Origin: Raillietiella orientalis
Lineage: Eukaryota
Direction: 5' to 3'
DNA length: 64,000 nt
Assembly (NCBI GenBank): GCA_036172245.1
Contig: JAYWIR010000001.1
Span: forward strand, 2,604,001-2,668,000
The position numbers and the translations under genes were made by a program. Each line of letters starts with the position of its first letter. Position 1 is the first letter of the stretch. Below, one piece after another: positions 3,701 to 64,000 of the stretch. The notes beneath the pieces were generated by a model. The model was not told the origin of the DNA and made no database searches. It saw only the letters and a list, made by a program, of their open reading frames with translations.

Positions 3701-6700
3701 TGAATGTAAATGAAGTTATAAATTTAGCACTGAAGTTTTAAATACTAAATCAGGATAAAAATACCATTTACATCCAATACCTTGCCACAATTTATCCACT
3801 ATTCTCATTACTAAATAGAACAAATTATGAACAAGATTGGTGTGAGATCCAGCAACTGTAACAGGGAAAATCCCAGATCCGATCGTCCCAGACATACAAA
3901 AGTATTCCATAATAGTTAGTAAAAGCTGCATCTGGATATCCAACAAGTGTGGGTGATCAGTGGCTTCAGGAACAACCTAAAATTCGAAAGTCATAAAATA
4001 AATGCAACATTATTAGCAAACAACGACTGCAAAATAACAGCTCAATATTGTATAAGGAAAAATATAACTTAGAATTTATAAATATCGACGGTATCCTGTT
4101 TGCTGAAACAGGTCATGAATAGTTCGTGCATTTCATAATTATTGATATCTTTATGTATCAAGCAATTATTTTTGTATGAAATCTTTAATTGCTATGGCCA
4201 AAGCATCTGCCAATTAAAAAACAATATTTGCTGATGACCTTATGATAAGGCAGCTTTGATAGTGGAGATTTCACAAACAAACCCAACAAAATTTTCATGA
4301 ATCCAGTATCGTTCAAATGCTGAACAGGATCTAGATCCAAATGACTCCAAGAAGCCAAATGCTTTTGAATTTTGTGGGAATTGTGAATGTAATTCATTTC
4401 TGAAACTAATTCAGATAAATTACAGTTATTTATGAATGCTAATTACTCAGACGTAAATAAGCATCTAATAATTATTATTTTAATTCAAATTTGAATTAAT
4501 TACTTAAGCAGCTTCCGTTAAATGAATTGCTGTAATTTTTTTCTAGGGTAATGTCGTTTAATTTTCTTGATTTCCCAGAATTCCCTGCGATAATTTTGTC
4601 AAACAAACTCTTCTAAACTCCCAATGCACCATAACATGCAGTTCTGCAATATCCCTTGATTTCATTACATGAGAAATTGTCTTTTTTCTGTCTGTTTTTA
4701 TTGCATTAAATCTGGTATAAGAGTTCCGTTAATGATCATAGATCTATCATTCATTTGCAATTGTATTTATTTATTTAGCATTACGAATATCCTTTTCCAT
4801 GCTTTTTACATAAAGTCAAAGTGGTTTTAGTTGTAAAATAATTACCGCATGCAAAAGATTTAAACCTTCCGAATTGAATACTCGCACGGAATCTGGAAGT
4901 AAAAACACATGGACAACGGCCGAATTAATCCTAAAATCAGGCTTAGTTATTGCAAATTATGCCAGCAAATACATATAAATACCGAAGCTCACGGATTTTC
5001 CATAATATACAATGCTTTCTAGAAGTTCAAGTTGAAATGAATACTTTCCTCGTTTAAATTATCAGCACCACATGAACCATAAAACAATCTGATTCGAATT
5101 CTAGAGTTTTGTTAACCTACGAATATTTGGTATTTTCAAGTGCATTTACTTAGAGTCACTACTACCCTCCTCCCTAAATACGGAAGTTTGCTTTTTCTTT
5201 TTAAGAATTTTACTTATGCTATTTCTAGACTAAACATTTTATTATGTATAATATCCAACATCTTTGCCTCATGATTGGAGCACAGATACAAAAATGAAAA
5301 TGCATTTTTATATACAATGATAAAAAAATCAATTCTAATTCTATCTGCATGGCAATAAAAAGCACATAACCAAGCTCAATTCTCATTCTATATTTTTGCC
5401 TAAAAGTATAAATGCTGATTTTACACTAGCTATTATTAGTGAACATGAATCTGTGTTGAATTCTGATGTATCCATGGTGAAGACACAGATTAATCTTAAA
5501 GTTTATGGTATTCTCCAAATGCAATGAACGAATACAGAAAATGTAATTCAAAGTATCACAAAGTGATGTAGTTTCAAAATCTTAAAATTAATCTCAACTC
5601 ACTTCTAAAATAATATCCAAAGCTGGTGACGTTTTGGAACTCCCTGATAGAGACAAGGAATCAACAACAATAATTTTTAAAAAATCCAAGACCAAACTTT
5701 TACAGGAAGAAATCATTAAAAGTTTCTCTTTCTTAGTTAGGCCTGAATTTGGCATAGCCATCTGAAAAAATTCAAATAGTGCAGCTTGTTTTCCCATAAG
5801 TAGTTTAATAAGCTTACAGTGCACGTTGGTTTACTTCTCTCGGGTTTGATTAAGTTGCTGCTTTCTTTGTCACTTTTATATGGCAAGCTTACATATACCA
5901 AAGAAGTCAAAATATCAGATGACATAAAAACTTGCTTATTTTCTGTACTGCTGTTATGATATAGATATAAAAGTATTTGGAGTATTGCCATTGAATACTC
6001 ATACAAGCATTCAGGAGATCTAATTTTGCAGAATTGAAAATGGGGAATCAATTTTTCAGACAACATTCAGAATTTTTCAGAATGTGATATAGAATGACAA
6101 ATCAGCTTTAGTAAAATTATATTTATGAGCAAATTTAAAATTCAAAACAAATTTATAATTCAAATAATTAATATTTCAAAAGAATTTAATGAAGAGCATG
6201 CAAAACATCAGGAGAACCCCAAGAAGTAAGGATAAATATTTTGTCTGCAACTTTCTAAAAAGATGATAAACTTCAAATACCAATTTTCCCATGATCGTTA
6301 AAAATCAAACTTTACTGTACATTTTAGCAAAGATATGAGAAAAGTAATCATAAGATGTACTCATAAAAAATCGGCGATAAATAACATTAAAAAAGATGAG
6401 GATAAATGTTTTGAATTCACAAGTTGTTAAATCAAATAAGACTCGATAAACTTATCTACTCATAGTTCAACAGAAAGATTTAGAAAACCGAACAAAAACT
6501 CTAAAATATTAGCACAAATGCACAATAACACTGCAGATAACTGCAACAGAGAAATGACTGAACTAAGAAAACAATTATACTAGAAAAATCTAATAGATTC
6601 GGATAAAAAGTAAGCAGTCTCCAAAAGTTTACACATGAAAATCATCATAACAGACAAATTAATTATGTTCGCTATGCAAGAACCTTTGATTTCAAGTTTG

Positions 6701-21700: not shown

Positions 21701-24700
21701 TCAGAGCAACTCCAAATACAAATTTACCATTTATGCAACAACCAGATATAAGTAGCAGTGAGCATAATGCAGCTGTTAAGTAATAAAATACAGACTCTTT
21801 AAATTTTAACAGAAAGCTTCGCTCATGTGTTAAAATTGGTGATGCATAATCAACAATGCAAGGTTACGCACTTGTGACTATTGTACATAAAATTAAGCAG
21901 AAGACTCAAGAGCCTAAACAGATGGCATCATGCAAGAATAGGTTTTTGTAAATAAATTTTGATTTCAAGTAATTCCTAGCTTGCAGTAAGTAAACTTAAT
22001 GAACAGCCTTCAAAATTACACCAGAAAGAGAATCAATAAAAGTTGATAAAAATAACTGAGATAATGAATGATCCTTTGTTACATTTTGTCCATCTTTTAT
22101 ATTTCCCTAGGTAACAGAAAAAACCATTGGTCCAGGAATCATAGCATCAAGTTTTTGGAATATCAGAAACTCAGTGATAAGAAGTCTCAAGTATCCATAA
22201 TTTTTTACACAATAAGAATGTATGAAAAGAGAATGCGAACAGTCACAATCTTTTCTTCAATAATATCAAAATAATTTACAGACAATCAATAAAATGTTAA
22301 ATGTAATCAATCAAACAAAATGTCATCAATAAAATGCCAATAAAATGTAAATGAAATTGTTAATGTTGATAGCATGTACATACATTGGAATCTTCATTAT
22401 TGCAAACTGAGGGAATCAAGCGTAATACAGTAAACAAAATTCCAGGATGTACTATGATTATGTGTGACATGATGGATATGTTGAATGGTGTTCCACATAA
22501 TTTGTTGCGTTTTGAGTCAAATGTATTCACATTCTTGAATTCAAATGAATACGATTTATCAAAATTATCCAATGCTAAGTCACAAAGAAGTCTGAAGACT
22601 TTACAAGCATATCCTAATTTTAGTGGGATCCTGCTTGGTAATCTGAAACAAAAAGACAAAAACATAATTTAAAATACTCACTCCTTTGAAAATAGCTTAA
22701 CTTTAGAATTTTTAAATATTTACTTTACCTTTGATGAGTGTTATTTTGATTTATGTAATTACATGCTGCTGATTGCAGCACTTGAAGAATGCAAGAATAA
22801 ATTTTGTAAACAATATAGAAGAACAGTCACTTACTCTTCAAAGAAATTTTCGGCAAAAAAGATGTCTTTAAAAATTTCCGTCTGATCAAAGGTGATCTTT
22901 TGGCAACATGGTGGCATTATTTTTTCAAATGAAAAGCATCCAAACAAACGTAATGTATGGCACAGATTAAAATTCGACATCTAATTTGAAACACATAATT
23001 ATTAGGCAGTTAACATTAGCTTTCACTTGATAATTTGATAATGAAATAAATGCTTGACAAACTATGCCTACCTCTTGTTGGAAGTATTTAGCATTTCCAG
23101 GCTCAAATCTCATTGCCATACATATGGTCTTAAAAATACTATGTAAAATTATTAAAAGATCTTGCTGTTGAAATCTGCTGTGAAGTGATTCATCATCCAA
23201 CATATGTTCCAACGTCACCAAAATATTTATCAAACTTGTAAAGCCTCCTACTTTACGAAAAAGAACTCTTACACGATGGTTTGCCTTCAAGCAATTAGAT
23301 AAAATCATTAAAATTTCAGCTTTCGTTTTCAGATCCTCCAATTTAATTAAATATATGGTTTCTAGGAAAAGTCTAATCTCCTCTTCACTAGGTGAAAGCA
23401 ATATTGAACTCTGAATTACACCTGCAATCAAAATACAAACTCAGTGTGAACAAATGCTCAGCACTTTTGTATTAGAGAAACATATTATTGTCCTGACACA
23501 AAGAATGAAATTCACTTAGTTCTAAAAGTAGCAAAAACGAAATTTTGGGGAAAAATGCATCTTAAACTAATTATTATTTATATCTATATTTATATCTATT
23601 TAATCAGTAAACACATCCTTCATCATCATGAATTAAATTTGTTGTTTCAAAAAAAAAAAAATCAAATAAAAATGCAATAACACAAATTCCAATCACAAAA
23701 TGATGCTCTGCTACTTATCTTGACATGCACAAACACAAAGCTAAGATCCTTTGATATCATGAGACAGTATAATAACTGTTCAGAAAACTCTGAAAGATTA
23801 AGTATACACAAAAATCACATTATATTAGTTACATATGCAAACTCCAGATAGGTATTTAAAAAAGAAAGGATCGGGAAACACATCTGTCTGCATATCATTC
23901 AGCATCATGTACTTTCAAATACAAAATTCCATATCAAATTGAACATACTACGCATTTGATGGCTGCATATGATATGTATTTCAAACTTCAAGGGATGTAG
24001 GGTTTATCGCAGGTTATTGTTTATTGTTATGAATTGAACACATTATCAGAAAAGTTTCGTATTTGAATAATGGAATAAAGAACTTGATTATTTTGAATTT
24101 GAGATTACAATAAATGCGTAAACTTGATTATATGCTGTGAGGTTATTAAAGAAAGTGATATAAAAAACATATAACCTCTCATCACTTCCTTTATCAGTTT
24201 TTTTAAAAACTGGAACCTGATTTACTCTTTTGATTTACTCTACATATGTTATTTACTTTCCATTATGGATTACCATAATTATAAAATTATTAATAAAATG
24301 AATAATGTGTTAAAAAAGCAGTTCAGATATTACATGGATTTTACAATGCAGGAAACTGTTTTCTAGATTCGTCAAAATAAGCAGTAAATTATTCATTTAC
24401 AGACTTAAACGTAATTTGTATGACAATTTTCTAACAACAATTTAAGGGATTATAATGCAACGCTAAACCCTGGAAAGATCCCCACAAAACCTTTGAGAAA
24501 TCCTCAAAATCTTTAAATGATATCACTGAATATTTTACACAGATATTTGATAACAACTTGGCATGTGCTTGAAACATAAACAAACGTTTTAATAGACTAA
24601 TCGAAAGCTTTATAGGAATAAAAAACAAAAAAAAACATTAATGTGGTTGTATCAAAAAAGAAAAAAAGGGCAGAAACTCCGAAATATAACCATTATTAAG

Positions 24701-46864: not shown

Positions 46865-47646
46865 TCACTGTTCTCCTCGCGGCTGCTGCTGCTGCTGCTG
46901 GAGGTGCGTCAGGATGTGGTGCTGCTGCTGGGTCTCGGAAGAAGGCGGATGGAGAAGGTGGTGGTGGTGGTGGTGGTGGTGATGGTGTTGACGCTGTCCG
47001 TACAAATGCTTCTGTCCGGGGATGGGAGATGGCGTAAGGAAGTGACCCAGGGTGATCCTCGGGTCGCCATGAACCAGCAGGGCGTGCTCCAGCCTCGACC
47101 GTGGGAACCCGAGCGCCAGTTCCTCCTCCGGAGACGCGTCCCCGGCCGAGGGAGAGCGCAGGCGAGGTATTGGCGAGTCTCTGGAGACCGCCTCCGTCTC
47201 CGCCGCCGCCGCTGCAGCAGGTGACGGTGAATCAGGAAGGCCGGAAGGAGGAGGGATGGCGGCGCTGCCGCCGCCTTCCGGCGAGCCGCGCTGCCCGCCC
47301 ACTGCGTCGGCGGGTCTTTTCCTCGTCCTGGTGTCCTCCTCCTCCTCCTCTTCCTCCTCCTCCTCTTCTTCTTCTTCCTCTTCCTCCTCCTCCTGATCCT
47401 CTTCTTCTTCCTTCGCATCTCCTCCCGCTCTCCTCCCCTCCTGATCTCCCTCCGAGGCAAGGAGAGGAAGAGGAGGAGGAACTGGGGTCCTACTGCTGCG
47501 AGCGGAGACGCCGTCGTCCGGCTCCTCCCCGTCAAACACCGGCGCCTCCTGGAGGCAGCTCCCCATGGCAGCCCTACTTAGCAGGTACTGAGCGGGAAAC
47601 TGGTGCTTGGGGTCCATGCGCAGAGCCTCCATGTGACCGAGAAGAC
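46865..47646 (-). CDS. dati: dati-like terminal coding exon with poly-E, poly-A, poly-H and poly-Q tracts
   Basis: [26 protein letters not shown] then low-complexity tail; TGA at 46865-46867 (overlaps a possible donor CA|GTGAGC). Confidence 0.82.
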
Positions 47647-50600
47647 CTGTGACGAAAGGTGACGTGTGATTGCGCCGGGATAACGAAATTCAGGGACGCG
47701 GTGAGAAAAGGAGGGAGAGGAAGAGGAGTGGGTAGAAGTGGCTACGGTGAGATGCAGAAGGATGGGGTGAGAAGGGGGTGGGTAACGGATTTTCCCCCCT
47801 CCTTACCTGCTTCGTGGTAGAAGACCAAGTGACACGAGGAGCAGGGCCAAAGGGCAGGGGCCCGGCGGCCCCCCTGAGGGTGGCACGCAAGGTGCTTCCG
47901 CAAACTTCCCTCGTTGACGTAGTGCTTCCCGCACACGGGACAAGGGTGGAACGCGGACCTCCTCTTCCCGTGCAGGGAAGGCGCGAAGGCGCCGTGTCGA
48001 TGACCTGAGAAGGAAGAAAGAACACGGTAGGACCGGAGGGAGAGCGGGAACAGAAAGAACCGAGGCTGGGCGTCTCCCACTGGCTTAGGGGTGAGGGGAG
48101 AAATTGCGCCCATCCATCCACCCTCGCGTACCTCCACTGGTGCGCGTCCTCTACCGCCCCTGCTACCAGACTTCCCTGTCTGGAGGTAAACCCTGGAGAG
48201 GCTGAGAGAGGCGATCCTGTTGAGCAAGGACGGCCACGGGGAGCATCCTGCGGAACTCCCTGCGTTTCCTGTGGACTGCCAAGCTTTCGCCCCGTTGGGA
48301 GGCCTTCAGATTGCGAATAGCCGTCACTACGGAGCGAAGGGCCATTCCTCGGAATTCGGGCGGCATCGGTTGCCGCGGAAACCCCTTCCTCAGTTCTTAG
48401 AGAGAGCTTCCTGCACGTTAAAGCAGAGGACCCTGGAGGAGGATCCCTGGGAGAGCGCGCTGATGCACTCCACCGAACTAACCCCTCCTCCCCCTTCTTT
48501 CCTGCCAGCCCGCCTCCCTGGGAGGCGTGTCAGCAGGGAGCTGCGGAAGGATTCCGGAACCGCTGGTTAGGAGGCGCTCCGTGGAAAGTGCTGAAGATAA
48601 TCGGGGCGCGACGGAGGAGTGGGAGGGTGGTGGACGGGGAGAAAAAGAGTTGAAGCAGCTACGCTCTTCTTGAGTTGAATGAAAGCGCTACTCCGAGCCG
48701 AAGATGCGCCACTTCCCACCAGGGGAGGCGAGCGGTAGGGAAGAGGTCTAAAAGCGACTGTTCCTATGGCCCACGACCCACGATTCCCCTACTGCCAGGC
48801 AAACGCGCGCGTGTGTCACCCAGCAGTCGAAAGGGAGAGGCACCGCCCCTCTGTCTGCTCCACGGGAAGGGAGGGCAAGTCGGGCAGAGTGAGCGGGGCG
48901 GGATGAGAGGCCAGGTTTGCGGGCGAAGAGCCCCGAGGTCGCAGGGTGGGAAGCTCTCTGCAGGCGCGCTTTTCTCCCGAAGCCAAACTCGCCGGGGGCT
49001 ATCTCGGAAAGAAGAGACGATGCGAAGGGCAAGAAGGAGTTGGCGACAGCAGCCGCCGGACCGGAGAGCGACGGCGCGTGTCCGCTGGAGGAATTTCAAT
49101 GTGTGCGGCGGCGAGGGCGGCGAAGGAATTTCTCCGCCGCCCCTGGGCGTCAGAGTCCTGCTGCCGCGCTTCCGCCGCCGCCGTCGTCGTCGTCTTCTTT
49201 CTCTCTTTTTCTTTCTACTTTTTTTTTTGTCTCCCTGTGGTCGAGAGCAGCTCCTCGTGAACTTCTCAGAGTCGTTTGAAGACACCGGCCTTGGGCCAAA
49301 AACTCGGACACCTTTGGCGATAGCATGAAGGGAGGGGAGAGCGCGCGCACCTGCTCGGCTCCTGGAGTGGGACGGAAGGCTTCCCTGAGGTGGATGCGGC
49401 TGCTCTCCAAAGAGCGCCAAAGAGCACCGCCCTCTGTGGAGGATATCTTCCTGGAGAATCGCGAAGAGGGAGCGGCGGGACAGAAAAACGAGAACCGACG
49501 CTGTGTGCCGTGTGAGTCGTGCCACGCCCTCCTCTCTTCCCCCGTTTCCCGCAAGTGGCGTGTGCGTGCCTTCTTTGGGACTTTGGAGCGGCGGTTTCTT
49601 CCCTTCCACGCCTCGGGGGAGCGGGAAGCTTCCCGAATGCTTCCGGGACACCGGATCCGATACGGACCAGAACATCTCCAAAGTCTCTTCCTACTCCCTC
49701 TCTCTTACGGACATGCACAGTGAGTGTCCAGGCATGGAGGGAGCCAGAAACAACGGACCCCTCCCCCTCTGACCTCTGCGGCTGGAGAAAGAAGAAAAAG
49801 GAAAGCAGCGGCCAGCGGGAGCGGATTAGCCCCGAAAGATCCAATGAACGGCGAGCTTGCATTTCTTTTTCTGGACAATGATTTCTTTCAGGAACGACTG
49901 GCACACTCTTCCAGGGGCTGCAGCGTGAGGGGCCGCCGGCCACTCGTGTTTTCCACAGCCGTTGCGGCAGTGGACCGATCGAAGCGCACGCGTGTCGCTC
50001 TGGGAGGAGGGAGCCTTCGTCCTGCTCGCGGAAAATCCCAAGCTTCTCCGAGTGCTGGAAGCACGAATGCTTCCGACGACGGAGTTCCTACAGCTCCAGA
50101 GAGCAGGAACCCGCTGCAACAAAACTCCACACTCCCCGCGGCGGCACTACGCGGAGGAGCGAGCAAGCAAACAAGGGATCGAGGAGAGTGCGCGGGACGT
50201 CGAGGGTGGCCACCAACGCCACCGCACGTGGTGGGTCTTGGGGCAAGCGAAACACGATGAACAGCCCCAATCTTCGAGCAACATGCACTTTGCCTTACCT
50301 ACGGCAAAGTGGAGCTCTCCGCGTGTCGCCTCCGAGCTCCCGAAGCCGCAACTCAGAGTGCAGCACTGGGCACCAACAGCAAAATTCACAAATATCACTC
50401 GCATCAATTTTGCAGTCTTCCGCTTTATCAGCGTAGCGCGCGCATCATCATCGTTTTGTTCTACTTGAACCGATTTCCCTCATTTAGCACTTCCGTCAGT
50501 AAACTGCCACCTAACGCAGACAGTTTGCCATGCAATGTCTTGTCATTGGCGCTGGTTTCAACCAGGAAATCTTCCTGTTTTAAAACAGGGCCAGATTCCA

Positions 50601-53600
50601 GTCTTTCGTTCAACTGCGTAACGCAAACTCCAGTCTCTCGGTCTCCTGCTAAAATTGCGCGCTGCGTAGGAGCTGCACCGCGCACCATCTAGGCGGCAGC
50701 AAAGGATGAACAGCAATACAACCATATTTTGGAGTATTCAAAATTTCTTTTGAAACTATCGACCCATGTACAGCAACAACTGCAACTTTTGGTTTGGAAT
50801 TCCTAAACTGTTCCTCCCTTACTGAAGATTTTAGAGAGGTAGGAATTCATAACTCCGTGACGTTTTCCTCAGCAATAACATGTATTGGAGATTTGTATTT
50901 GTCCACGCCCCGAAGGTTTCGGAGCCTTATTATACGCTGTTACTATCTTATTCTCTGACGTTAATAACAAGCCCAGTGCACCACCAGCGAATTCCAGCGA
51001 CCCCATGAAAAGAACTCTCGTTCTGCTAAATGTTTCTGCTTAAGGAAATCAAGAATTTTCTGCTAATTTGCCGCTTACAGTCTCCACTAATTCTGCAAAA
51101 TCATCTTTGTATTTAACAGCCATATCAGCAAAAACTTAGACTCTAGAATAAGTGAACCCATGCTCCCTTACTGCTGCTGCATCAATACGTATTTTCCTAT
51201 CCACAGGCTGCGAAAACCGCGCTCGCGATTCCTTCTGGCCACGGAGTTGCTTTCGTAATGGCCTTGCCGTGAGAGCCGCATATTCGGAGGTGCTTCGCTG
51301 CATACTTTCCCGCTCCGTGTTAGCGGGATGATGGGGGAAGGGGGGGATGAGGGTGCACGCTGGAAGTGGCTCAGGGAATGTCCCAAGCACAGGAGCTGAG
51401 GTGCCACCACGTATGAAACAGCTCCAAATCGGAAGGGCTAATCAGACATCGTTCAAGAGCCAACGATATGCCCAAGCACGAAGATCCGATCGAATACTGT
51501 GATCGTGTTTTACGTAATTCACGTGCTACCGACGGTCGAAACGCATGTTACCTGGGTCTTCTGCGAAGCAGGAGAAACAGCTCTATGTTCCTGTTGGCGC
51601 CAGGACTCAAGAATAAGGCCAACAAGAAAGAACCCCCAGAACACATAAACCCTTGTGCAGTCTCGCTTGATACGCCCCCTTGCGGGTGACATAGGAAATT
51701 GAAAAGCTTGATCTCTAGCAGGGATGATGATGGCTGGTGGCGGAATTAATGGTTCGAGGAATCACGGTAAGGACGAAGACGCTTCCAACAAAACAAAAGT
51801 TTCCTTCAGATGTAATGGATGCATCACCGAAGAGTTTAGACAACTGTGAAGGAAAAGAGGTATTCTTCCCTATGAAAGGAATATACATTTCTGGTCTAGG
51901 AATTAAATTTCCAAAGAAACTACTTTAAGAAGAAACTCAGTACATTCTGTCTTTTCAAGAGGAAAAAGAAAAGCATTCTTTGTCTCGACTAGAAAAACAA
52001 GCAAACCAACCTTTCGAAACGCATTACAGTTTCTCAGTTTCCTAACGGAAGAATTCTGCAGCAGACAAAGAAGAATGGGGGATGCAGATATGTCTGCGAA
52101 ACGTATTAACTGGGATGGTCACGACTTGACCTGCAGTCGATCCGCAGTCGTGATGCTGAAGAAACGGCAGCACTGTGCTTCGGGCGTATCTTACATACCA
52201 ATGTACGCACTCATACCTCATCTATGCCTCACTTATCCTGGCATAAAAAAAGCATGCTGGTTTTCACGAGAATGGTTGGTTTCACGTATTATCCCGAAAC
52301 ACACTCTTGCACATACAGCCCGTGAAAAGACAACCGATAATCAAATGGCAGTAACTAATTCAGCAAAAGGGAAACCATCATCTGGAATGGTGAAGAGCAA
52401 ATTGGACTTTGAAAAGTGCAGTTTTTTTTTTTTTTTTTCCAACCCTTTCCATGTAATCATTCACGTGCGCATGGTGCACAATGTAAGAGCTGACCAAATT
52501 TCTTCAAAGTCATTTCAAGCTAGTGCTCAAGTATTTAAACTCCCAAACAGACAAAGTTCAGTACAGAAATTTCTTCCCTTTCGGATCGTCCGGGATTCGG
52601 AGCAGCATTTCGCGTTAAAACCACACTCCTGGATACGGAAGAGAAATTTGGGAAGTGAAACCGGCAGCAAATTACGAGAACAACTGGTTCAGCAGTCTCG
52701 CATGGAAATGAACTCGAGTCCCTTCTAATGAGAGGCAGTCTGGAAGAATCTTGTCTCTTTCAGAGCGGAGAGCATTCACGAGGTCTTTGAGAATCCGTAA
52801 GGTAAAGGTGTGGTCGAAGAATCCCATGAAACCACCGTGGTTTTCCCATGTAACAGATAATGGAGTTTTGTTCAGACAGAGAGCCAGGCTCTGCAACAAC
52901 ACTCAACCAGCTTGTACTGTTTCGAGCGATGCAAACCCAGGCTACCAATAAAACACGGACGAATTACGAAGGGGAGTTGATGTTTCGGAAGAGAGAGACA
53001 CGGAAAGAAACAGATGGACAGACATCCTCGAAAAGAGTGGTCTCAAACTGTTTGCAAGCACCTTGCGAAGCCAACCGGCTACTAATCTCTGAGCAGTCTT
53101 CAGTATCGGCGCCCTCTTTCGCGCTGCAGCCAACAGTGTCGAGCGGCACCACATCCTTACAAGACTCCTGCGCCTTCAACTTGATGTCCCGCTTGGAGAG
53201 AGGGGAGCCCTTGTACGGATGCGTGATGTCCCGTAAGGAGCATTCACTTGGAAAGATGGAGAAACACACACACAACCGTGCGAGTTTGCCATTGTGTTTC
53301 GGGTTTCGGGACGCACTTCAAGAATCTCCTGAACGTACTGAACAAAAAGCACAGCGACCATACATCCTGAGGAACAGTCATCGTAACATCGCCGTTCCAT
53401 GTCCTTCGAGAGAGCTCTGAGGAGCACCCCTCGCAAGGGGAAAGCATCATAGCCGGGAGCGTTTACAAGGACGCACCATTCCAGTATGTGTGTGAAGCGC
53501 GCCAAGAGACGGTGGCACGAATACATCGTACGAATTTCGTGGTTCGAGGAAAGTGGCCTCATTTGAGGGCAAAGATGGAGAGTTCACGTTTTCCCGTCAG

Positions 53601-56600
53601 TAACAATCGATATGTCTCCGCAGAAGCAGCAGCTTTTCACAATGTGGCCTGCAGGTTTGCTGTATCTCGAGGCGAGAATAAAAAAAAAAGTTCCGATGTC
53701 GCCAGCTGAGAGAGGTCAAGATCAGCTTAGGATCGGAGAACAATGGCACCTGAAGCAGCTACAGAGTTCCCAAGTTCTTCTAGGCTCTGGAAATTCCTGC
53801 CAAGTTTCTCTCTTTTTCGAAGGAGTGAGCGGAAAGAGATGAGAGCTCTGTGAGCAGTGGTTTCACAGTTTGCTATCTGAGAACTGATGGCTGCTGCTGA
53901 TGATGATGGGAAGGGGACAAGCGCTTCTGCGAGGTGAGAGCGTTGACCAAGACGAACATTTTCGAATAGTGGCTGACCCCATTTTATCTGATTAGGAGCT
54001 GTCACCCTTCCATGAGAGTTATCGTGTCAAAGGAGAGAACTCGTGCTTGGATTCATGAAATTCCCTCAGGCACTTTCCTGTGCCATCACAAAAATCATTT
54101 CCAGGCGCAGGAATCATTGCCATTTCATCTCACGCGCTCTCAAGTCTGTGAGGATGAAAATCCTGTTATGTCAGGATCCACTGAGCTGGTAATTTCTCCC
54201 ATCAAGTTCTCATGGGCCGCACATCGGAGACGAAATTCTGGGAGCACCTGCTCAGCTCCTGCCACAGAGAGCCCACGGTGCTCCACTCCATGCTGGCAGA
54301 ATCTTGAGTAACAGAAGGGAGTTCACTGGGATGAGACAAAGGTGAGATGCGGACAACAGTTGGCTCCATTTCCAGGGTATCCAACGGTCAAGGAGCAGGC
54401 ATCTCGACCGCTATCGTGCCGAGCAGCTTGGGTTGGTGGCTTTTCTGGAACTCGAGGTCCAGCGGTGCTACCAAAGAGTTGCTCAGTCTGAGTGCCTCAG
54501 GCGGCATGCGCTTTCACTGCTAGGGAGAGTCGCGACGCTCCTGGGAATCGGCGCTCACGCTTTCCAGGCTGAAGGCTCCACATTTTTATCCCACTCGTTT
54601 CGTTACTCTCTTCCACACACTCTTCCTCACCTCTCTCTCTTTCCCTACCCTCTTCCCCCCCTCTCTCTCCAAACCTATGCTTCCCGTTTGTCTCGCTTTG
54701 CTTTGGCCTCCTAAATTTAGTGTTCGTCTAGGAATTCCCGATTCGCATCCAGGAGAGAAACCTGTCTCTTGGAATCTGAGTATCTGCTCGCTGATCCAGT
54801 CCTTGTGGCATCCAGAAATTGGAGCCTCGGAAGAGGCCACGCTGGTCCGAAGGTTTAGGGGAGCTGCTGTAAGATCATCTCCGGTGTTCATTTTCGGTCT
54901 CCCCGTGATACACGCGGAAGCATGAAAGAACATGTGATTCCCCCCCTCCTTCCCGCTTCGTTTCGCGAAGTGCCGGCAAAGAGTCGAGCAGTGAAGGAGT
55001 GCAGAATTTTAAAAATAACCCACAGATCAGGTTGATCGATGTTATTGCCCTGCTTTTTTGGAAAGAAGGATAAACCATGACGAGTCTTACGGAAAGGATC
55101 GTGTGAATGGCCCGAATCCTCTCTCGTAGCTCGGTGTCAAGGAAGATGGTTTCATGGAGATGTGCTCCCTTACATGGTGAGGGTGACGGGGTCAGGTCAA
55201 GTTAAAGAGCGCTGCTGCTAAGAGGAGCAGGTGTTAAGAAAAAGCAGAGGTTCAAGTGGCGCAGATGAAGCGCCAATGCCAAGCAAGCTTTTTGGGAGGT
55301 GGAAAAGTAGGAAGCTGGGGAAAGAAAGCGGATGTAAGCTTCGTGGAGTTCCAGGAAACAACCCGTGCACAACAGGAAGGGAAAGCCGAGAAGCTATGAT
55401 GCAGAGGACTCAGAGGATGCAGCTTTAAAAATCGGAAGCAACGGATCAGGAAGCCAAGTTCTTCCAGGGAGAGAAGAGCATCAAGCTTGAAGGCGAGCTG
55501 GACGAAAAGCGCCCAACCATGCGGCAGAGCGACGCAATCTCGTGCAGGACGGCATCAGAAGAGATTTCCAGTAGCCAGGCAGAAGGAGCCAAGCTGAGGA
55601 TCATTACAGAACGAAAAGCCGCTCGAGAGAAGCAAAACGAGAAGATGGGGGATGCTCGCTGAGGCAGATACGAACGCTGCCACTTCGATCCTACATCTCG
55701 TTCCGATTGGCTGAAATCTCATGATGAGATGGATCTCCATCCCAACGAGTAGGCTCAGAGTGCACATATCGAACTCAGGAAACACTCGCTCGTTGCTTTC
55801 GCTCCGGCTTCCCAAGAGGTAGTCAAGCGGCCCCTCTCCTGAAGCGGAGCAATGTAGTTGACCATGGCGGTTCAGGCGACCCTACGTTAGAGGTGAAAAG
55901 GCCACTCACAGGATCAGTCTTCTGCCTCAAGTACTCAAAGATAGATTACTTCGCTGCACCACTGGATTCTGACCAGTGCAGCAGCAAAGTACTTAAGAAA
56001 TCATCAAAGCCTCAGCAGTCTCTTCTGGAGCCAGCTAGAGGACAATGAAGTCATCACGATCCTCTAGCTGCCAGCTGAATTCTCTAGCTGAATTCTCCTC
56101 TTTAGAAAGAACACCCGAAAGGAAGAAGCACTCATGATGTTTTCGCTCCCGCCTCTGAGTGATCGGGAGCGAAAACATCATGAGAGGCCCTCTCTTCCTT
56201 ATGAAACGTCCAGAACCCTGTTAGAAGAATCCTGCAGCTGGAAGATGGAGATCTGCTTGAACTGGCTTGAAATCTGCCTATTCGAAGATGCCTCTGGAGT
56301 GGCGCGCTGCCACGCATGACCGTGCTACAAGGAAACGTCGAAAGCTTGCTCAGAGGAAAGTCATTGGTGCTGAAGACCAGATGCGTGTTAATCATCCGTC
56401 GCTAGAGAAGGGAATCGATCATCTCAGGAGCATCCGCCACCCGTCCTCGTCGTTTCGGACTCTTCAGCCAACGCACCGGACTATCGTAAATCCATTTCCA
56501 GCTCCCTCCTCTGTCTTCGGTTCAGAGAAGAGTCTGCACGCGGAGCACGGGAGGCGCTCGGGTTCCCGCTCTCGCGAGCACCCGGAATGACGGAAATTTC

Positions 56601-59600
56601 ATCTCTTCCAGGCGCCAGCACTCCTGCAGTGCTCTGTGTCCTCTCGGCGTGCTGCTCCTAGAAGAATGACTTGCGGGCTGACGTTAGGGGGATCGTGTCT
56701 TGAGGGAGATCCCCTCCGTCTGCATGCAGTCACTCTGTCAGCCTTCCCAGATTCCATCTGCACGGGTCTTCTTGTTTGCTAACTGCGCCTCTCGTTCCCC
56801 CGGACAACGACGGCGGCGTGACGGACCTGCCGAGCGCGGCGCAGCCACTTGGGTGCGCAGCGGCGAATTCCCGGAAGTATCAGCCGGTGCAGGGAGTCTC
56901 GTCAACTCGGTCGCGCGCCACCACTCCACATTCGGAGCGATCTCCAGGGCAACAGAGCCGCCTCAGTCCCGCGAGGAGCAGATCTCCTCTTCCGCAGTTC
57001 CCGAATCCTGGTTCTCCTCTCTCTAACACCCATTTCAAAGGCTCTTCAGCTGCTGCTGCGCGCCTGAGCTGGGAGTGGGAGACTAGAGGCGCCTTACTTC
57101 TCCGTCTTCGAAATGCCGACCATTTTGAGATTTCAGTTTTCTTCTTCTCCTTCTACTTCCTCCCTTCCTCCTTCCCTTCTCCGTGCAGTGGATCATCCCG
57201 TTTTCGCGCATTCCTGAATGAACTCCGGAAAGCACCCCTGGGTTTTTCCTTCAAAATTTCATTTTCTAAATTTCATTTAACAAGGATTCTTCTTCTTCTC
57301 GTCCCAGATTTTTCATCATCCCTTAATTAAAAATTCGTCCATGTGGCAGATTACTGATGGATGTTTGTCTAATGGGATGAACCCGAAGGCCCTGACTAAA
57401 GGATGGCGTTGCGTGCACGGGGTGCGAGTGGATTTTTGACAGAACGGAGGGGGGAGGGAAGAAGGAGGGGACGGGAGGACTGATGGAGCGGGGCCGTGAA
57501 GGAGGCAGAGGCCCAGACTCCTCCTCGTTTCCACCCGCACGTGCGGAAGGCGCGCGCGCGGGGTGCCGCCAGCGGAGCGCAGAGACTTCCCTCGGGTGCC
57601 GCTCACGAGATCGACCGCGTGGTTCAGTGCTGGATGGGAGGAGGGTGCGCCGCTCCGTTTCCGTGAACGTGGTGGGGGTGTCCAAACCGATAGGGGGCAG
57701 AACGACTCCTAATGTTCAGGGCAATTCCCGAGAATTCCTGAGGGAAAGGGAGACGTCCGGTCATCCAGTCGATCTACTCCGGAATGGAAACTTTGCCAGC
57801 ATTCGGGCGCTGCTTTCCCGGATGCGGGCACGGAAGGACGCCACCGCAGGCAAACGGAAGTGGAAAGAGAGGCGGAAAGAGAAAATCAGAAGTTTCCTCG
57901 TTCTATTTTCCTTATTTTCCTCTGAGGGAAAAAATGTGTCTCATTCCTCCATTGTGCATGCGTGCTTTCCTGTGTGTGCGTGCGTGTTCGCGCCGGATAC
58001 CCACGCTCCTGCATTGATTAATCCGGACAGAAACGCTCAACCCTTTCTTCGCACACGACGGATGAATTAATGAGGAGAAGATGCACCTTCGAGAGCATCG
58101 TCGCAATCTTCCGCTGTGTGCTGATGATTTGCAGCGCTCTTCCGTGGAACCCCGCAGCTTTGGTTGCAGTGGCGTTCCGCAAACTGGAGCCACCATCCAA
58201 AGTGCTGACCATCTATTGCTGATCTTTTCCCTCTCGGGATCTCCCGATCTTTAGGCTAAGAAAAAGTCCCTAGGAACCGTAGCTGCTGGATGCAGCCCGT
58301 GGGAGGAAAGCCTCCGTTTTCTTGAGGAAAAGTGACCTTTGCGTGGAAACACGCTGTGCACGCTCATAAACACTGGAAGTGTGAGAACCTGAGCGAAACG
58401 TAGCAACCTCTTACGATTGGCTTTCGAAGAGTGGTCCACGGGCCACTCTTCGAGGATGCAGTCACGAGAAAAACAGAAAGTCGGAATTCTCGTCTGGAGA
58501 TGCAGGGCTGCAGAACTATCTCGAAGCAGCTTCTTGGAAGCTTTGCTCCTGGTCATCGAGTCTCCATCACGGTGAACCTTCTTCCTGAATTCCATTTCCA
58601 GTCATCGCTAAGTTTGCCTGTGGGTTCACTGGAAGCTGAAAGCAGGAGCTCTTGCGAAGCTGAGCGAACGCTCCTGCAGTGAGACTCAATCCACGTATGT
58701 GCCATTTCTGTGCGGCAGCTTTCGCGAGGGACTGGTGCATACGAGGATATTTTCGTAAGAGAACCAGCATTGCTGAAAGAATCCACTTCGCTGAAGGATC
58801 GAAGAGGGAGCAGAGCTCTCATTCCCTTACACCAGAATCACATGTGCCTAAGGGAACCGCAGAAGTCTGGAGGCGAATGCCTTCTTCCCGACTGAATTCC
58901 AAGCGAACAGACGACATGTCGAACCCTTTTTCTTTTCGGAGGAGGTACGGAGAAAAAACAAGAAGGAAAAATCGAAAATTTCGAATTATCCAGTGCCGGA
59001 TGATGACTCATCTCTGGGACAGCTGATCGCTGAGGTGTATCCCGTATGCGTCCAGACTACAGACATGAAATCGGAGCCTGAGGGAATTTTCATTCTTGAG
59101 ATGCATTCACAAGTTGGAGCTCTCTTGGAAAACGAAAACTGTGAATCAACTGAATTCTTCTTTCGGTTCTCATGGAGGTTACGAGGTGTATTGTGGAGCT
59201 TTCGGGCTGTTCTCCGAGGAGTGCTTCGGGAAAGAACCACCACGCTTGGATCCACTTCGCCGTCGTCCCCTTTAAAATCTCAACCAAGATAAAGCCAGAC
59301 GCGGATATTCATACAGGCACTTTTCCTGCTCGTTCCAGTGCTTTGCTTTCCGGTATTTCTGTGATGAGGACCATGGAAGAAGGCGGTTTCCATAACCTTT
59401 CGAGATGATCGTGTGAAATTGTCATCTCAACTACGAGAGGGCTGTGAGCCCGATCAGCCAGGAACGCTGGAGCTTCCTTCCATTATTTTCCTTAGCTACC
59501 AACAGTCAGCTGCTCACGCATCCACTCTGTAGCAGAAGCGGTATCGACTGGTCGCTTGAGGCCCACCCGAAAAACTCAACATGCTCCAGAGCGGGCTAAT

Positions 59601-61664
59601 CAGACAGTTTAAAGGGATGGACATTTTAGGATGGAGGTTGCGAAGAGAATCCCCAGGAATCTCCAGAGTCCCTATGCGGAATCCAGGCAACGCTCGTTTT
59701 CCTTGCAGCTACATTTAGTACGTGTGCACCAAGATCCCCACCTTCGGGTCGTTTTCTGCTCCTCACAGCTTCAGTAGAGGACACGAGGCCGCTGCACGCC
59801 TTCATTTTCCAGCAGTCTCCGTACAGCGGTGATCAAAGACAGCGGCAGTGCCGAGAAAGGCGTCAGGATAGTCGCATGGAGCCAACTGGATTTTCCCACT
59901 TAAGGAGACTGCTCGAAGTCGGCCACCACCACCCCAAAAATAAAGTCTCAGGAGCTCACTGGCTCCCTGATCTCTTCAGGATCGTCACTGGCCAGATCCT
60001 CACTGGATCGCATTTAAACCCCTGCCCTTTGCTGAGTTCCTCACTTGGATTTGCGGGCAAAGGGAAGGCGAGCACTCCATGCGCTGGACCAGAAACATCA
60101 CTTCTCCCTGCAAGAGCCCCAAAGACTCCACCCGTCTTCTCTCATCTTATGACGCTTCAGCATGCCGTCTTTGGCTACTGTCACTCTTAGGTTTGCCCCA
60201 ACCTCGGTTTTGCAGCTCACAGAGATACTTGCAAGTGCACCGTCCCTTTCTTCCTCAACGACCACTTCAAGCTTCGGTCCCACCCTCTGCACATCTCCTT
60301 GCCTTGCTTCTTCTTCCTCGTACAGCATGGAAGGTCCTGCAGCAGTAGCTGCTACTTTCTAACAGTGCGGAAAAGATGAGTGTTCCTTCTCTGTGAAAGG
60401 CGTGACGAAGATCGACAGGCGGATGCCGATCTCTTAACAATGTGGACCGGATGAAAACAGCCTGTGTTGACGACAACCGATCCTTGACCCCTGCCTGTGT
60501 CTGATTCGATGGAAATCATTGTTCCAAGCCACTCGGAGGAGGGAGGGAGCTTAAGCACCACGGCGGGCTCGAGCGTCGCTGATTGCCTTCTACAGCGCAC
60601 CCACTCTACAATAGGGTTGATTTGAGCTCCGCGCCTACAACGTCCTCGAGGATGCTTCCTTCCTCCGCATCCTGCCTCTCTCAGCCTGTGGCATGTACCG
60701 CGACGTCGATCCCAGAGCCACAAGCGCTCAGAGATAGATAGTTTGGGGATCCCAAACTTCATCCTCGGCCAAACCGAATGCGCGTTACCACCAGAGCGCA
60801 GGGAGATGAGTGGACTGGCGTGACCGCGGGAGGAGCAGGATGAATGCCAAGAAGGACGACAGGAGGCACGTGGTGGCTCTCTCGGGAGAGCCATCGGCAA
60901 GGGAGAAGGGAGGGAAGGGAGATTGCGGTGCCGGTTCCGAGGAGGGAGGATGTCTCCAAGAAGGAGCGCCCGCGAGTCTGCACCTCCACCTCCTCCATCC
61001 TGTCCATGGAGAAGGCGCGCAGCTGCGGTGCGGAAGGAATGGGGCGAACTCCTTCCCAGGAGCAGGGAGTGCGGCGTCTGAGGGAAGGGAAGAAGCGCGC
61101 GCCGCTTTCAAGGAAGGTCGGGGACTCAGCAGCGGCCGGACGCACCCCGCCTGCCACAGCGCGGGATGAATCCCGAGCTCTTCCCTCCCCTCCGCACGTC
61201 CCTTTGAGTCCTCTTCCCGAGAGGAGGAGGGAGAGAAGAAGGGAGGGGGACAGAGAGAAAGAGAAAGAGGGAAGGGGGGAATTGGCCTACCTAGGACTCC
61301 GGGGACGCAAGATGGCTCCTCGTGAGCGTACTTCACGTGGTCCACGAGGGCATCCGTCGTCAAGAAGAACTTGCTGCAGATCGGGCATGAGTGGGCGTCG
61401 GGGCCCCCGATGAGGGCGGCATGCTTCTGTGGAAGGAGGAGGTTGTGCAAGGAGGAGCAGGAAGGGGGAGGGGGCGTACCTTGGACACGTGGGTGCGCAG
61501 ACTGGACTCCGTGGCGAATCCTTTACCGCAGACATTGCAGTGGAAGGGGCGGTTCCTGGCCCTCTCGATCTGCGCGTCGTGGTTCCGGAGGTGCTGCTGG
61601 AGATTGCTCAGCTGGATAAAGGCCCTTCCGCACTCTGCGAGATGGCACTTGTAGGGGCGTTCAC
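46865..61664 (-). CDS. dati: C2H2 zinc-finger transcription factor, datilografo (CG2052; LIN-29/rotund family) ortholog, 3' part in 4 exons; N-terminal exons beyond right edge
   Basis: Exons 61480-61664, 61291-61426, 47807-48004 and 46865-47646 join with GT-AG introns and matching phases. Motifs [103 protein letters not shown] match my recollection of Drosophila dati. Confidence 0.85.
47807..48004 (-). CDS. dati: dati-like exon (finger plus half finger)
   Basis: [30 protein letters not shown]...[14 protein letters not shown]; pyrimidine-rich acceptor, donor G|GTAAGG. Confidence 0.92.
50382..51021 (-). pseudogene. fmt: Bacterial methionyl-tRNA formyltransferase pseudogene, Wolbachia/Anaplasmataceae-like, 3'-truncated
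   Basis: (ACG)[11 protein letters not shown]...[10 protein letters not shown] /frameshift/ [16 protein letters not shown]...[31 protein letters not shown] /frameshift/ [19 protein letters not shown]...SGPVLKQE...LHGKLSALG...YADK. No introns; start codon lost, in-frame TGA at 50847-50849, several frameshifts. Confidence 0.92.
51049..51245 (-). pseudogene. rplT: Bacterial 50S ribosomal protein L20 pseudogene, C-terminal half
   Basis: [13 protein letters not shown] /5-nt insertion/ [17 protein letters not shown] /deletion, [31 protein letters not shown]; stop lies 27 nt before the fmt start on the same strand. Confidence 0.88.
52075..52400 (+). pseudogene. Possible heavily decayed alphaproteobacterial FtsQ (POTRA region) fragment
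   Basis: Across one frameshift reads [31 protein letters not shown], reminiscent of the FtsQ pattern W(I/V)K.A.V.R.LPNTL.I.I.ER.P.A.WQ; resemblance by eye only. Confidence 0.3.
61291..61426 (-). CDS. dati: dati-like exon (one finger); NAGNAG acceptor CAG AAG
   Basis: [35 protein letters not shown]; follows a 53-nt intron; donor G|GTAGGC. Confidence 0.9.
61480..61664 (-). CDS. dati: dati-like exon (two C2H2 fingers)
   Basis: [62 protein letters not shown]; acceptor ctcag, donor AAG|GTACGC. Confidence 0.93.
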
Positions 61665-64000
61665 CTGAGCAGCACCACAAGAGATTGCAACTGAGGGGTG
61701 GACGGAGGGGACGGACGCGGTGCGGCGCGCGCGCGTGCGTGCTGGTCCTCCTCATGAGCTCCCTCCCCATCCGAGAGGCGTCCTGGGATGAGGAGAAAGG
61801 AGTGAAGGAAGACCTTCGAGACTGCTGCTATCGCTTTCATGGGCGGAGCCGATCCTTTTTAGATGGAAGATGGTGGTGGAGGTGTGTGTGTGTGCGTGGG
61901 TGGGTGGATGGATGGGGGCAGCAATAACCACCATTCAGAAGAGGAAGGCCTCACGAGAGGGATGGTAGCACCGGAGATGGCGAGGAGGTCGGCCACTCGT
62001 GTGGGAGCACACTCGGAGAAGGAGATCCTCCCGTCTCGCGGTTCCGTGGAACCCCAAACGCCTCCGCGATCCTCATACCTCCCCCCTTTTTTTTCTCTCT
62101 CTCCACTTGTCCCAGCATGGCCTGTGTGCACTCTGACTTTTCAAACTCCCTTCCCGTGCTTGGGACAGGTGACGGGTGAGGCAGGATGGGGTCATTTGCA
62201 CGCGGCCGAGGTGCTTCTGGCTACGCAGCGCTTCTGCAAGCGAGCAGCAGACCCCATAGCCGTGGAGACGAGTGAGCAGCTGCTCACCACAGAGAACCCC
62301 TCAGTGAGCTCCTCGAGAGCCACTTCGATGGTTTGAGGCTTCGTGGTGCAGTTTGCACATGTGCCGAGCTGCTGGACGCTCAATGAACGACACGGTGACT
62401 CAAGCACAGCTGCCGATGCATCTCTCTTTTTTTTTCTCTCCTCTCCTACCTTGCAGGCGTGTAAGTCAACCGAGAAATGCACAGATGACGTCATGAGAGC
62501 TGGTGGCAGGCGTTGCCACCAGCTCTCTCGTGTATTCACGCAAGCGAAGTTCCACGATTCATCCCGTGGATCCGTCAGGAGCGGGCACGTGACCGCGAAC
62601 TCCCGGGAACATCCCACTGCAATGCACGCTCCAAGCTGAGTTTGCGCGTCTCCAGGCAGCATCGTCCCCAGATGGGGGTGCGCACGAGGAGCTGCTGCAA
62701 ATCCAGCGCATCTCTAGCAGCGCTGCACCGGGTTGCGCAGAACCAAAGGGGGCTGGATACTCCCCCGAAGGGAGGGGGAGAGTGGGAGCCGAAGGAAGCG
62801 CGTCAGCAGGAGTTCCCCTTCATCCTTTCCTAGGAGAGCATTTGAACACTCTGAGGACTTAAGAAACTACTCATTTTGCGGAAAGGAGCACGCAGAGAGC
62901 TCGGACTTGCGCACTCCACCCTCTTCCGCCTCGCGAGCCGAAAACAAAGGTCGGAAGGTGTAGGAAAGGGAATGCGTCCTTCACCGACCTGACTCTACTA
63001 AGGTTGCTGACGACACTTTTTGGAACCTCTCGATAGAGAGGGAATTCCAAGTACTCGTCTTGGCCTGCTCCCTTTCGAGTAGGCCACACCTGGTTTTATG
63101 ATGCAAATGGTCCATTGTTCCTGTGAACAAAAGCGTTCCTCTCTTTCAATAGTTGGCCTGGAATTGAAATTTCCTTTCCGCCTTTTGTCTTGGCTGAGGT
63201 CCTTGGTATGGGTCGTGCGTGGTGCAAAGTCGTGTTGTCCCCCTCTTTTGAAAGTCACCAAGCTGCACGGCTCGACTGCCCCTACTCCTTTCGCTTCCAA
63301 GCAGCACTGTGTGAAGCGCAGCTCGCTTTGAAGGGCTCGTTTCCCTTTTGCAAGAGGGTCACTCGAAAACTTCGAAATGGATTCGGGGGAGATGCTATTG
63401 CTGCAGCCCCATCCGTTCCCACGGCTCGTCCCACCAAGGGTGTGCTAGTCCTTCCTGTAGATGCATCGTCTTCCCTCCTTCCCATTTTTTCGAGGGAAAC
63501 ACCGGCGTGTTCCTCTTTCCACGAGTGCCCTGCGTGCTTTTTTCAATCCTTCGCAGATTTCGACCTGGAACCTTCTGGTGTTTTTCCAGTCCTGACGCAA
63601 GATTGCACGTCTTCAAAGATCCCTTGATGAAGCGTGTTCTTTCTTGATCCAGTGTCTCGCTCCTGATGTTGAGGAATAGCGAGGGGGGCTGGGGGTAGGT
63701 TCTGCAGCAGCTTCGAAACCCCACTTAACGAGGCGCAGCCACAGCAACATGTAAAGATGCTGCTACGCCAGAATCTGAACTTCGCACTCTCGTGGCAACC
63801 GTTACCGGAATTCTTTCTCTCTGATTCCGTCTCCGAAGAGTGATGCCGTTACTTTAGTGAAAACTTTCATAGAGTTGGTTGAAGGGTTTTTCTGAATTTC
63901 TGTTGCGCCGGGACATCTCGATCCATGTGCTACGATTTTCATAAGGATTGGAAGCAGGGAAGTGCCAAATCTGATGGACTGACGCGATAGAAACGAACAA

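Follow-up and report, generated by a model that had tools for sequence, protein, structure and literature searches.

A decayed rplT-fmt fragment of Wolbachia ancestry in a predicted intron of a dati zinc-finger gene

The insert and the host gene around it

We analyzed a 64,000-nucleotide (nt) stretch of contig JAYWIR010000001.1 (positions 2,604,001 to 2,668,000 of the forward strand), hereafter the window, in which remnants of two bacterial genes, rplT (for L20) and fmt (for Fmt), lie between exons of the host zinc-finger gene dati. A sequence-only reading of this DNA had described two co-oriented, broken rplT and fmt frames carrying the motifs of the bacterial proteins, and stop-to-stop frames, profile searches and alignments recovered all of these features on the minus strand (Table 1). 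The L20 pieces are distributed over the stop-to-stop frames at 51168-51437, 51136-51441 and 51049-51135, and the Fmt pieces over those at 50869-51039, 50649-50846, 50461-50688 and 50295-50444. The location of the insert had been given correctly, while its edges, placed earlier at 50382 and 51245, shifted to 50386 and 51237 by alignment. These edges are sharp, in that identity to Wolbachia drops to chance level (9/40 and 8/40 positions) just outside them, and a search for direct or inverted repeats bordering the insert found none.

Table 1. Features of the insert and of the host gene, in coordinates of the window
Feature	Position	Strand	Basis or remark
Whole Wolbachia-derived insert: rplT 3' part, spacer and fmt 5' part	50386..51237	-	~852 bp
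rplT (L20) remnant: residues 50-121 at 51237-51052, stop codon at 51051-51049	51049..51237	-	
In-frame stop within the L20 remnant	51136..51138	-	Alignment path and sequence
rplT-fmt spacer, 27 nt	51022..51048	-	12 nt in L097; 8- and 7-nt insertions here
Former fmt start codon, now ACG	51019..51021	-	L097 has ATG
fmt remnant, residues 2-214 of 302	50386..51018	-	Frameshift-aware alignment, PF00551, TIGR00460
In-frame TGA stop in the fmt remnant	50847..50849	-	Cys in Wolbachia Fmt
Mutated catalytic-loop stretch AVHPLLPP	50704..50727	-	Alignment; coordinates counted from frame 50649-50846
Zinc-finger exons of host dati (datilografo / ZNF384-like), upstream side of the intron	61295..61668	-	Bounds given by tblastn and not splice sites
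Exons of host dati at 47987-47805 and 47650-47567, downstream side of the intron	47567..47987	-	tblastn bounds

The damage to both genes was read from our own frameshift-allowing protein-to-DNA alignment, together with an ordinary DNA alignment to L097, a Wolbachia metagenome contig. In the local DNA alignment with positions 4217-5089 of that contig, 626 of the 825 ungapped columns match (75.9%), with a further 75 gap columns, and blastn against the Wolbachia contig returned 72.7% identity over 761 nt (E 8e-125). The alignment to L097 is continuous through the spacer between the two genes, at 73-76% identity. Apart from L20 and Fmt, no protein encoded on L097 has a match in the window, the values for alaS and rpmI being E 0.11 and E 0.20, respectively.

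The rplT remnant lacks the sequence for residues 1-49 of L20 and, in the DNA alignment, has suffered a 5-nt insertion, an internal loss of ~34 nt and an in-frame 3-nt insertion. Since its match to the NCBIfam profile TIGR01032 (rplT) was weak (E 0.031, 14.5 bits versus a cut-off of 65.65), the L20 half was tested separately by frameshift-aware alignment to the L20 of L097, in which 46/74 positions were identical with a score of 126; the L20 sequence shuffled 30 times averaged 34.9 and reached 51 at most. With residues 50-121 only, frameshifted and interrupted by a stop, the remnant has no full-length frame and is predicted to be non-functional as L20. The 27-nt gap that the earlier reading had placed between the two frames is present, extending from the L20 stop to the former fmt start.

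The fmt remnant is longer and similarly broken. It is missing the final 88 residues of Fmt, which make up most of the C-terminal domain, and it carries four frame-shifting indels, at approximately 50895-50899 (-5), 50683-50684 (+2), 50479 (-4) and 50436-50437 (+2). In the profile searches, PF00551 was found in 2/6 of the fragments tested against Pfam (E 6.3e-7 and 2.7e-10), PF02911 had no match among them, and NCBIfam TIGR00460 (fmt) was matched by three consecutive fragments covering profile positions 1-43, 70-115 and 116-183 (E 0.015, 2.3e-8 and 6.3e-20), with scores of 14-72 bits versus a cut-off of 201.5. The stretch AVHPLLPP stands where all of the compared Fmt proteins, those of Wolbachia included, have NIHPSLLP, a loop whose Asn we take to be catalytic. 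Both this altered loop and the lost start codon had been recognized in the sequence-only reading, and the alignment with Wolbachia bears them out. Judged by its whole frame and by its catalytic loop alike, the remnant is predicted to be non-functional as Fmt.

The mapped dati exons lie on both sides of the insert, at distances of 2.4 kb and 10 kb, on the same contig and the same strand. They have C2H2 zinc-finger matches in Pfam and are 85-92% identical to insect dati / ZNF384-like proteins, and their positions are consistent with the intron that had been proposed at 48005-61290. As such, the alignments place the insert in a predicted dati intron of ~13.3 kb, in the same orientation as the gene. 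From the identity of the dati exons to insect proteins we read the host as an insect; the exons score about equally against proteins of Diptera, Coleoptera and Hymenoptera. An open frame at 46865-47689 (minus strand), which covers the last mapped dati exon, contains long stretches of Glu, His and Gln, and such low-complexity tails may be the reason that the alignment of dati to other insects is confined to the zinc-finger exons.

Ancestry of the fragment within Wolbachia

When the best Fmt fragment, of 75 residues, was used in an open protein search, 61 matches were returned, 13 of them named, the top match being a Wolbachia Fmt at 66% identity and the other 60 matches ranging from 39 to 57%. 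In frameshift-aware alignment, the identity was 69.5% (148/213) to a Wolbachia pipientis Fmt, compared to 46.3% for Ehrlichia canis and 43.4% for a bacterial Fmt taken from the open search. A reference set of Fmt from Wolbachia, Mesenet, Ehrlichia, Anaplasma and other Rickettsiales was assembled from a second protein search, and the remnant was read through with an X at each break. In this form it is 68-72% identical to Wolbachia Fmt versus 42-46% to those of Mesenet, Ehrlichia and Anaplasma, and when the 180 references were ranked, the first 56 were named Wolbachia or members of the Wolbachia clade of an 80-row tree, before the first Mesenet sequence appeared. That quick 80-row tree and a more careful 45-row maximum likelihood (ML) tree both nest the remnant well within Wolbachia, where its terminal branch is long (0.56 and 0.49 changes per column, respectively), and an approximately unbiased (AU) test rejected a position outside all 37 Wolbachia rows (log-likelihood difference 40.5, p 0.0053). 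The claim of a Wolbachia donor, made originally from features of the two genes, is thus upheld by the identity ranking, the ML trees and the AU test, and the phylogeny of the frameshift-corrected Fmt places the remnant within that genus and not with its sister genera.

The order of the two genes was compared in two Wolbachia metagenome contigs, L096 and L097, which were obtained by scanning metagenomes with the C-terminal portion of Wolbachia Fmt that is specific to the lineage. Their Fmt proteins are 83-89% identical to named Wolbachia Fmt and are nearest to the supergroup B clusters. Both contigs carry rpmI, rplT, 12 nt, fmt and purH in this order, so that the adjacency of rplT and fmt in Wolbachia, which the sequence-only reading had stated, is real. 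The arrangement of rplT, spacer and fmt in the insert is colinear with these contigs, which means that the donor gene order was kept across two genes. By comparison, an L20 gene flanked fmt in 0/95 other proteobacterial fmt loci. There are points that weaken this comparison: 4/95 of the control loci (L016, L037, L038 and L060) do not extend far enough upstream for a judgement, and the adjacency itself comes from two near-identical contigs only, which are B-like and not F, with Ehrlichia, Anaplasma and Rickettsia lying outside the comparison.

This last point could be taken in favor of another member of the Anaplasmataceae or Rickettsiales (Mesenet, Ehrlichia, Anaplasma or Rickettsia) as the donor, as could the outcome of the first genome scan, in which the 75-amino-acid fragment gave just generic Proteobacteria among the matches listed, with at least 80 loci at 44-56% identity, because a conserved motif filled the matches listed. 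That scan was uninformative with respect to the donor and its loci were reused as the adjacency controls. In addition, 401 alphaproteobacterial genomes were sampled with Wolbachia Fmt, of which 388 gave a match, with a best identity of 46% and with no Anaplasmataceae among them; the top 15 loci of this sample were not near any named Rickettsiales protein. Of the 401 genomes, two (G043 and G243) are unpublished, and they enter this tally alone. Viral contigs were scanned with an F-type Fmt and no relative was found. Given the identities of 42-46% to those genera against 68-72% to Wolbachia, and the rejection by the AU test of any position outside Wolbachia, a donor from one of the related genera is highly improbable.

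A second alternative is that the two remnants are retrocopies of the host mitochondrial proteins MTFMT and MRPL20, as both L20 and Fmt have eukaryotic mitochondrial counterparts. Against this, the pieces are 27 nt apart in the operon order of Wolbachia, and the DNA identity of 73-76% to the Wolbachia contig runs through the spacer. Further, there was no eukaryotic protein, and no MTFMT-like protein, among the 13 named of the 61 matches in the open search, in agreement with the case that the sequence-only reading had made against such retrocopies. The exclusion is by ranking and synteny, the tree having been built without eukaryotic MTFMT, and we regard this explanation as scarcely credible.

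Within Wolbachia, the donor was probably a strain of supergroup F, as judged from the Fmt phylogeny. In the 45-row ML tree the remnant falls within a 13-row supergroup F clade with support of 100/97 and a best identity of 72% over 205 columns. The members of this clade are the Fmt of Wolbachia from Cimex, Mansonella ozzardi, M. perstans, Madathamugadia, Melophagus, Menacanthus and similar hosts, and the supergroup F labels of the Cimex, Mansonella, Madathamugadia, Melophagus and Menacanthus strains are those given in PMC12693587. Some of the evidence weighs against the assignment to F and would suit a real transfer from supergroup B or from another Wolbachia lineage, in which decay has drawn the fragment toward the short-branched F clade. 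Specifically, the AU test does not reject a grouping of the remnant with five supergroup B rows (log-likelihood difference 15.65, p 0.121), the branch of the remnant is long (0.49 in this tree), there are only 205-213 informative residues, and PMC12693587 itself cautions that noise may account for some of the nuclear fragments assigned to F. On the other side, the F clade is the placement given by the free ML tree, the highest identities (68-72%) are all to members of the F clade as opposed to 59-64% for the B clusters, and the quick 80-row tree excludes B and E with a value of 97 in the Shimodaira-Hasegawa-like approximate likelihood ratio test. A Wolbachia donor from outside supergroup F therefore appears rather unlikely, with supergroup F the better supported source.

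Two other metagenome contigs, L098 and L099, which are 98% identical to each other, were considered as carriers of copies of the same truncated fmt end and were rejected, as they share no DNA with the window and the match does not extend. It consists of 50 nt or 17 residues (L098 4429-4478 and L099 5998-6048) and corresponds to residues 197-213 of Wolbachia fmt only. Its score was 56 versus a maximum of 35 for shuffled sequences, and an 8-mer seed had picked the two contigs out of 241 million records. The match is probably due to chance after this seed selection, although it may still represent the last scrap of another transfer.

Decay and residence in host DNA

Overall, the DNA alignment revealed six frame-shifting indels, two in-frame stops, the change of the fmt start from ATG to ACG and truncation of the fragment at both ends, so that the decay described from the sequence at the outset is real and heavy. 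Mismatches to L097 amount to 21.3%, 17.3% and 33.8% at codon positions 1, 2 and 3, respectively; they are found at all codon positions, and therefore the protein constraint is gone. The differences are also biased in direction, with 116 from AT to GC versus 68 from GC to AT (binomial p 5e-4), and the GC content of the insert is 43.8% compared to 37.8% for the aligned Wolbachia DNA. The flanks have 61.8% (49886-50385) and 53.0% GC (51238-51737). Consistent with residence in the nucleus, the shift in composition would represent a move toward the GC-rich flanks (53-62%).

A neutral simulation related the amino-acid identity of 72-75% to ~0.12-0.15 substitutions per site, and neutral rates in insects are roughly 0.3-1.5% per million years. 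On these figures, the age of the insert may be on the order of 10-50 million years. It should be said that the single stop in fmt is fewer than the 3.4-3.8 expected in 214 codons under a uniform neutral simulation, which counts against unconstrained decay. This shortfall is not significant (Poisson p ~0.11-0.15), and the bias from AT to GC would lower the expectation of stops.

The shortfall of stops, for what it is worth, is what might be expected if the host had co-opted the insert, be it as a regulatory element within the intron, as a non-coding RNA or as a cryptic dati exon, and it is joined by the orientation of the insert on the dati strand and by its survival as a recognizable block. 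However, the insert is without an open frame, its differences are distributed over all codon positions, and a search for Rfam families in the window gave no match. We consider co-option by the host to be very improbable.

The linkage of the insert to its junctions comes from one assembly, which is a point on which the placement in host DNA could be challenged. Together with a GC content that differs from that of both flanks, it would be compatible with an assembly artefact, in which reads of a co-sequenced Wolbachia were misjoined into the dati intron. In view of the state of the genes this explanation is very improbable. The genes rplT and fmt are essential and single-copy, and a live Wolbachia could not carry the two of them in a truncated, frame-shifted and stopped form; the fragment also diverges by ~24-27% at the DNA level from L097, the one live Wolbachia contig compared, which is B-like. 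The excess of changes from AT to GC fits residence in GC-rich host DNA, and even if the fragment were misplaced, it would be a dead copy and not that of a symbiont. The argument from decay against contamination by a live symbiont, which had been raised in the sequence-only reading, accordingly holds: the truncated, frame-shifted and stopped rplT and fmt make such a source very unlikely.

The fragment has a bacterial origin and Wolbachia ancestry, a conserved gene order, heavy decay and sharp edges, and it is on one contig with host exons. Taken as a whole, the evidence indicates that the insert is very probably a nuclear Wolbachia transfer in the dati intron of the host. In such a transfer, a piece of the Wolbachia chromosome, of which ~0.85 kb survives, would have been broken within rplT and within fmt and joined into a break in the germ-line DNA of the host, within the ~13.3-kb intron. 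The lack of repeats at the ends suggests that insertion was by end joining, presumably followed by fixation in the host. Thereafter the piece would have evolved as non-functional intron DNA, losing its start codon and accumulating indels, stops and substitutions at every codon position while drifting toward the GC-rich local composition, and it would make no L20 or Fmt protein.

Surrounding sequence and relation to known transfers

The composition of the window is itself uneven, with sharp, isochore-like shifts from ~27-32% GC over 1-34 kb to 58-64% at 44-50 kb and at 61-62 kb. This heterogeneity is the background against which the drift of the insert from AT to GC is read. The AT-rich first 38 kb were considered as possible bacterial DNA and this was ruled out, there being only 3 frames of at least 120 codons; within this AT-rich part, a 157-codon open frame at 22967-23440 (minus strand) resembles an exon that belongs to a different host gene. 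Closer to the insert, at a distance of 670 bp and on the strand opposite to dati, is a stop-free frame of 273 codons (51907-52728, plus strand), which is followed in a different frame by one of 188 codons (52854-53420, plus strand). Frames like the 273-codon one are expected by chance at ~2e-4 in the intron. In searches of Pfam and NCBIfam, the flanking frames, this pair included, had no significant match to bacterial, transposon or other families, and one sub-threshold match to ATG11 (E 0.007). The single match of the 273-codon frame among 1.84 billion proteins was weak and repeated, was to a bacterial repeat protein and was discarded as not meaningful. This frame may be a remnant of a mobile element or a nested gene.

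In its manner of arrival and decay the insert resembles the nuclear copies of mitochondrial DNA (NUMTs), which are captured at chromosome breaks, keep their gene order, decay neutrally and adopt the local composition. The process would be the same, with a facultative endosymbiont as the donor in place of the mitochondrion.

Nuclear Wolbachia transfers (NUWTs) have been used in 22 filarial nematodes to reconstruct past infections, with supergroup F as a frequent source, according to PMC12693587. The two cases are alike in that decaying nuclear fragments of Wolbachia are assigned to a supergroup by phylogeny and serve as a record of infection, and they differ in that the material here is a single 0.85-kb fragment in a host read as an insect, while that of PMC12693587 is a genome-wide census in nematodes. 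Cases of Wolbachia transfer are also reported from filariae that are free of Wolbachia. In termites and cockroaches, bioRxiv 10.1101/2025.03.16.643567 names Wolbachia as the main donor (103/168 sub-orthogroups), with pseudogenes outnumbering intact genes about tenfold (2,494 versus 289), genes of genetic information processing often transferred and F as the source of one large insert. A Wolbachia donor is common to that work and to ours, the present host not being assignable to either termites or cockroaches. The large Wolbachia insertions in Glossina morsitans and the gene transfer between Wolbachia and the mosquito Aedes aegypti (PMC3998919, PMC2647948) are similar in that DNA of an endosymbiont is found in an insect chromosome. 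They are reported to be very large, multi-gene or transcribed, whereas the insert in dati is a small, old and dead scrap of two genes.

Transfers from Wolbachia to its hosts are common, well described and catalogued by the thousand, and the insert is one more case, without sign of function. It would record a past or present Wolbachia infection of the host, in that the germ line of the host had at one time come into contact with Wolbachia, probably with a strain of supergroup F. Beyond this, it is possible rather than probable that the insert is an old, fixed fossil of a supergroup F infection, tens of millions of years in age, in a lineage that may now lack F or any Wolbachia. For the screening of annotations and of contamination, the insert illustrates that a short Wolbachia-like match need not be contamination when it falls within a host gene. 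With its clean edges, it provides a presence/absence marker that could be scored in related species to date the exposure, and if relatives were to share by descent a supergroup F fossil at this dati intron, both the presence of F in insects and the association of host and symbiont could be given a datable minimum age.

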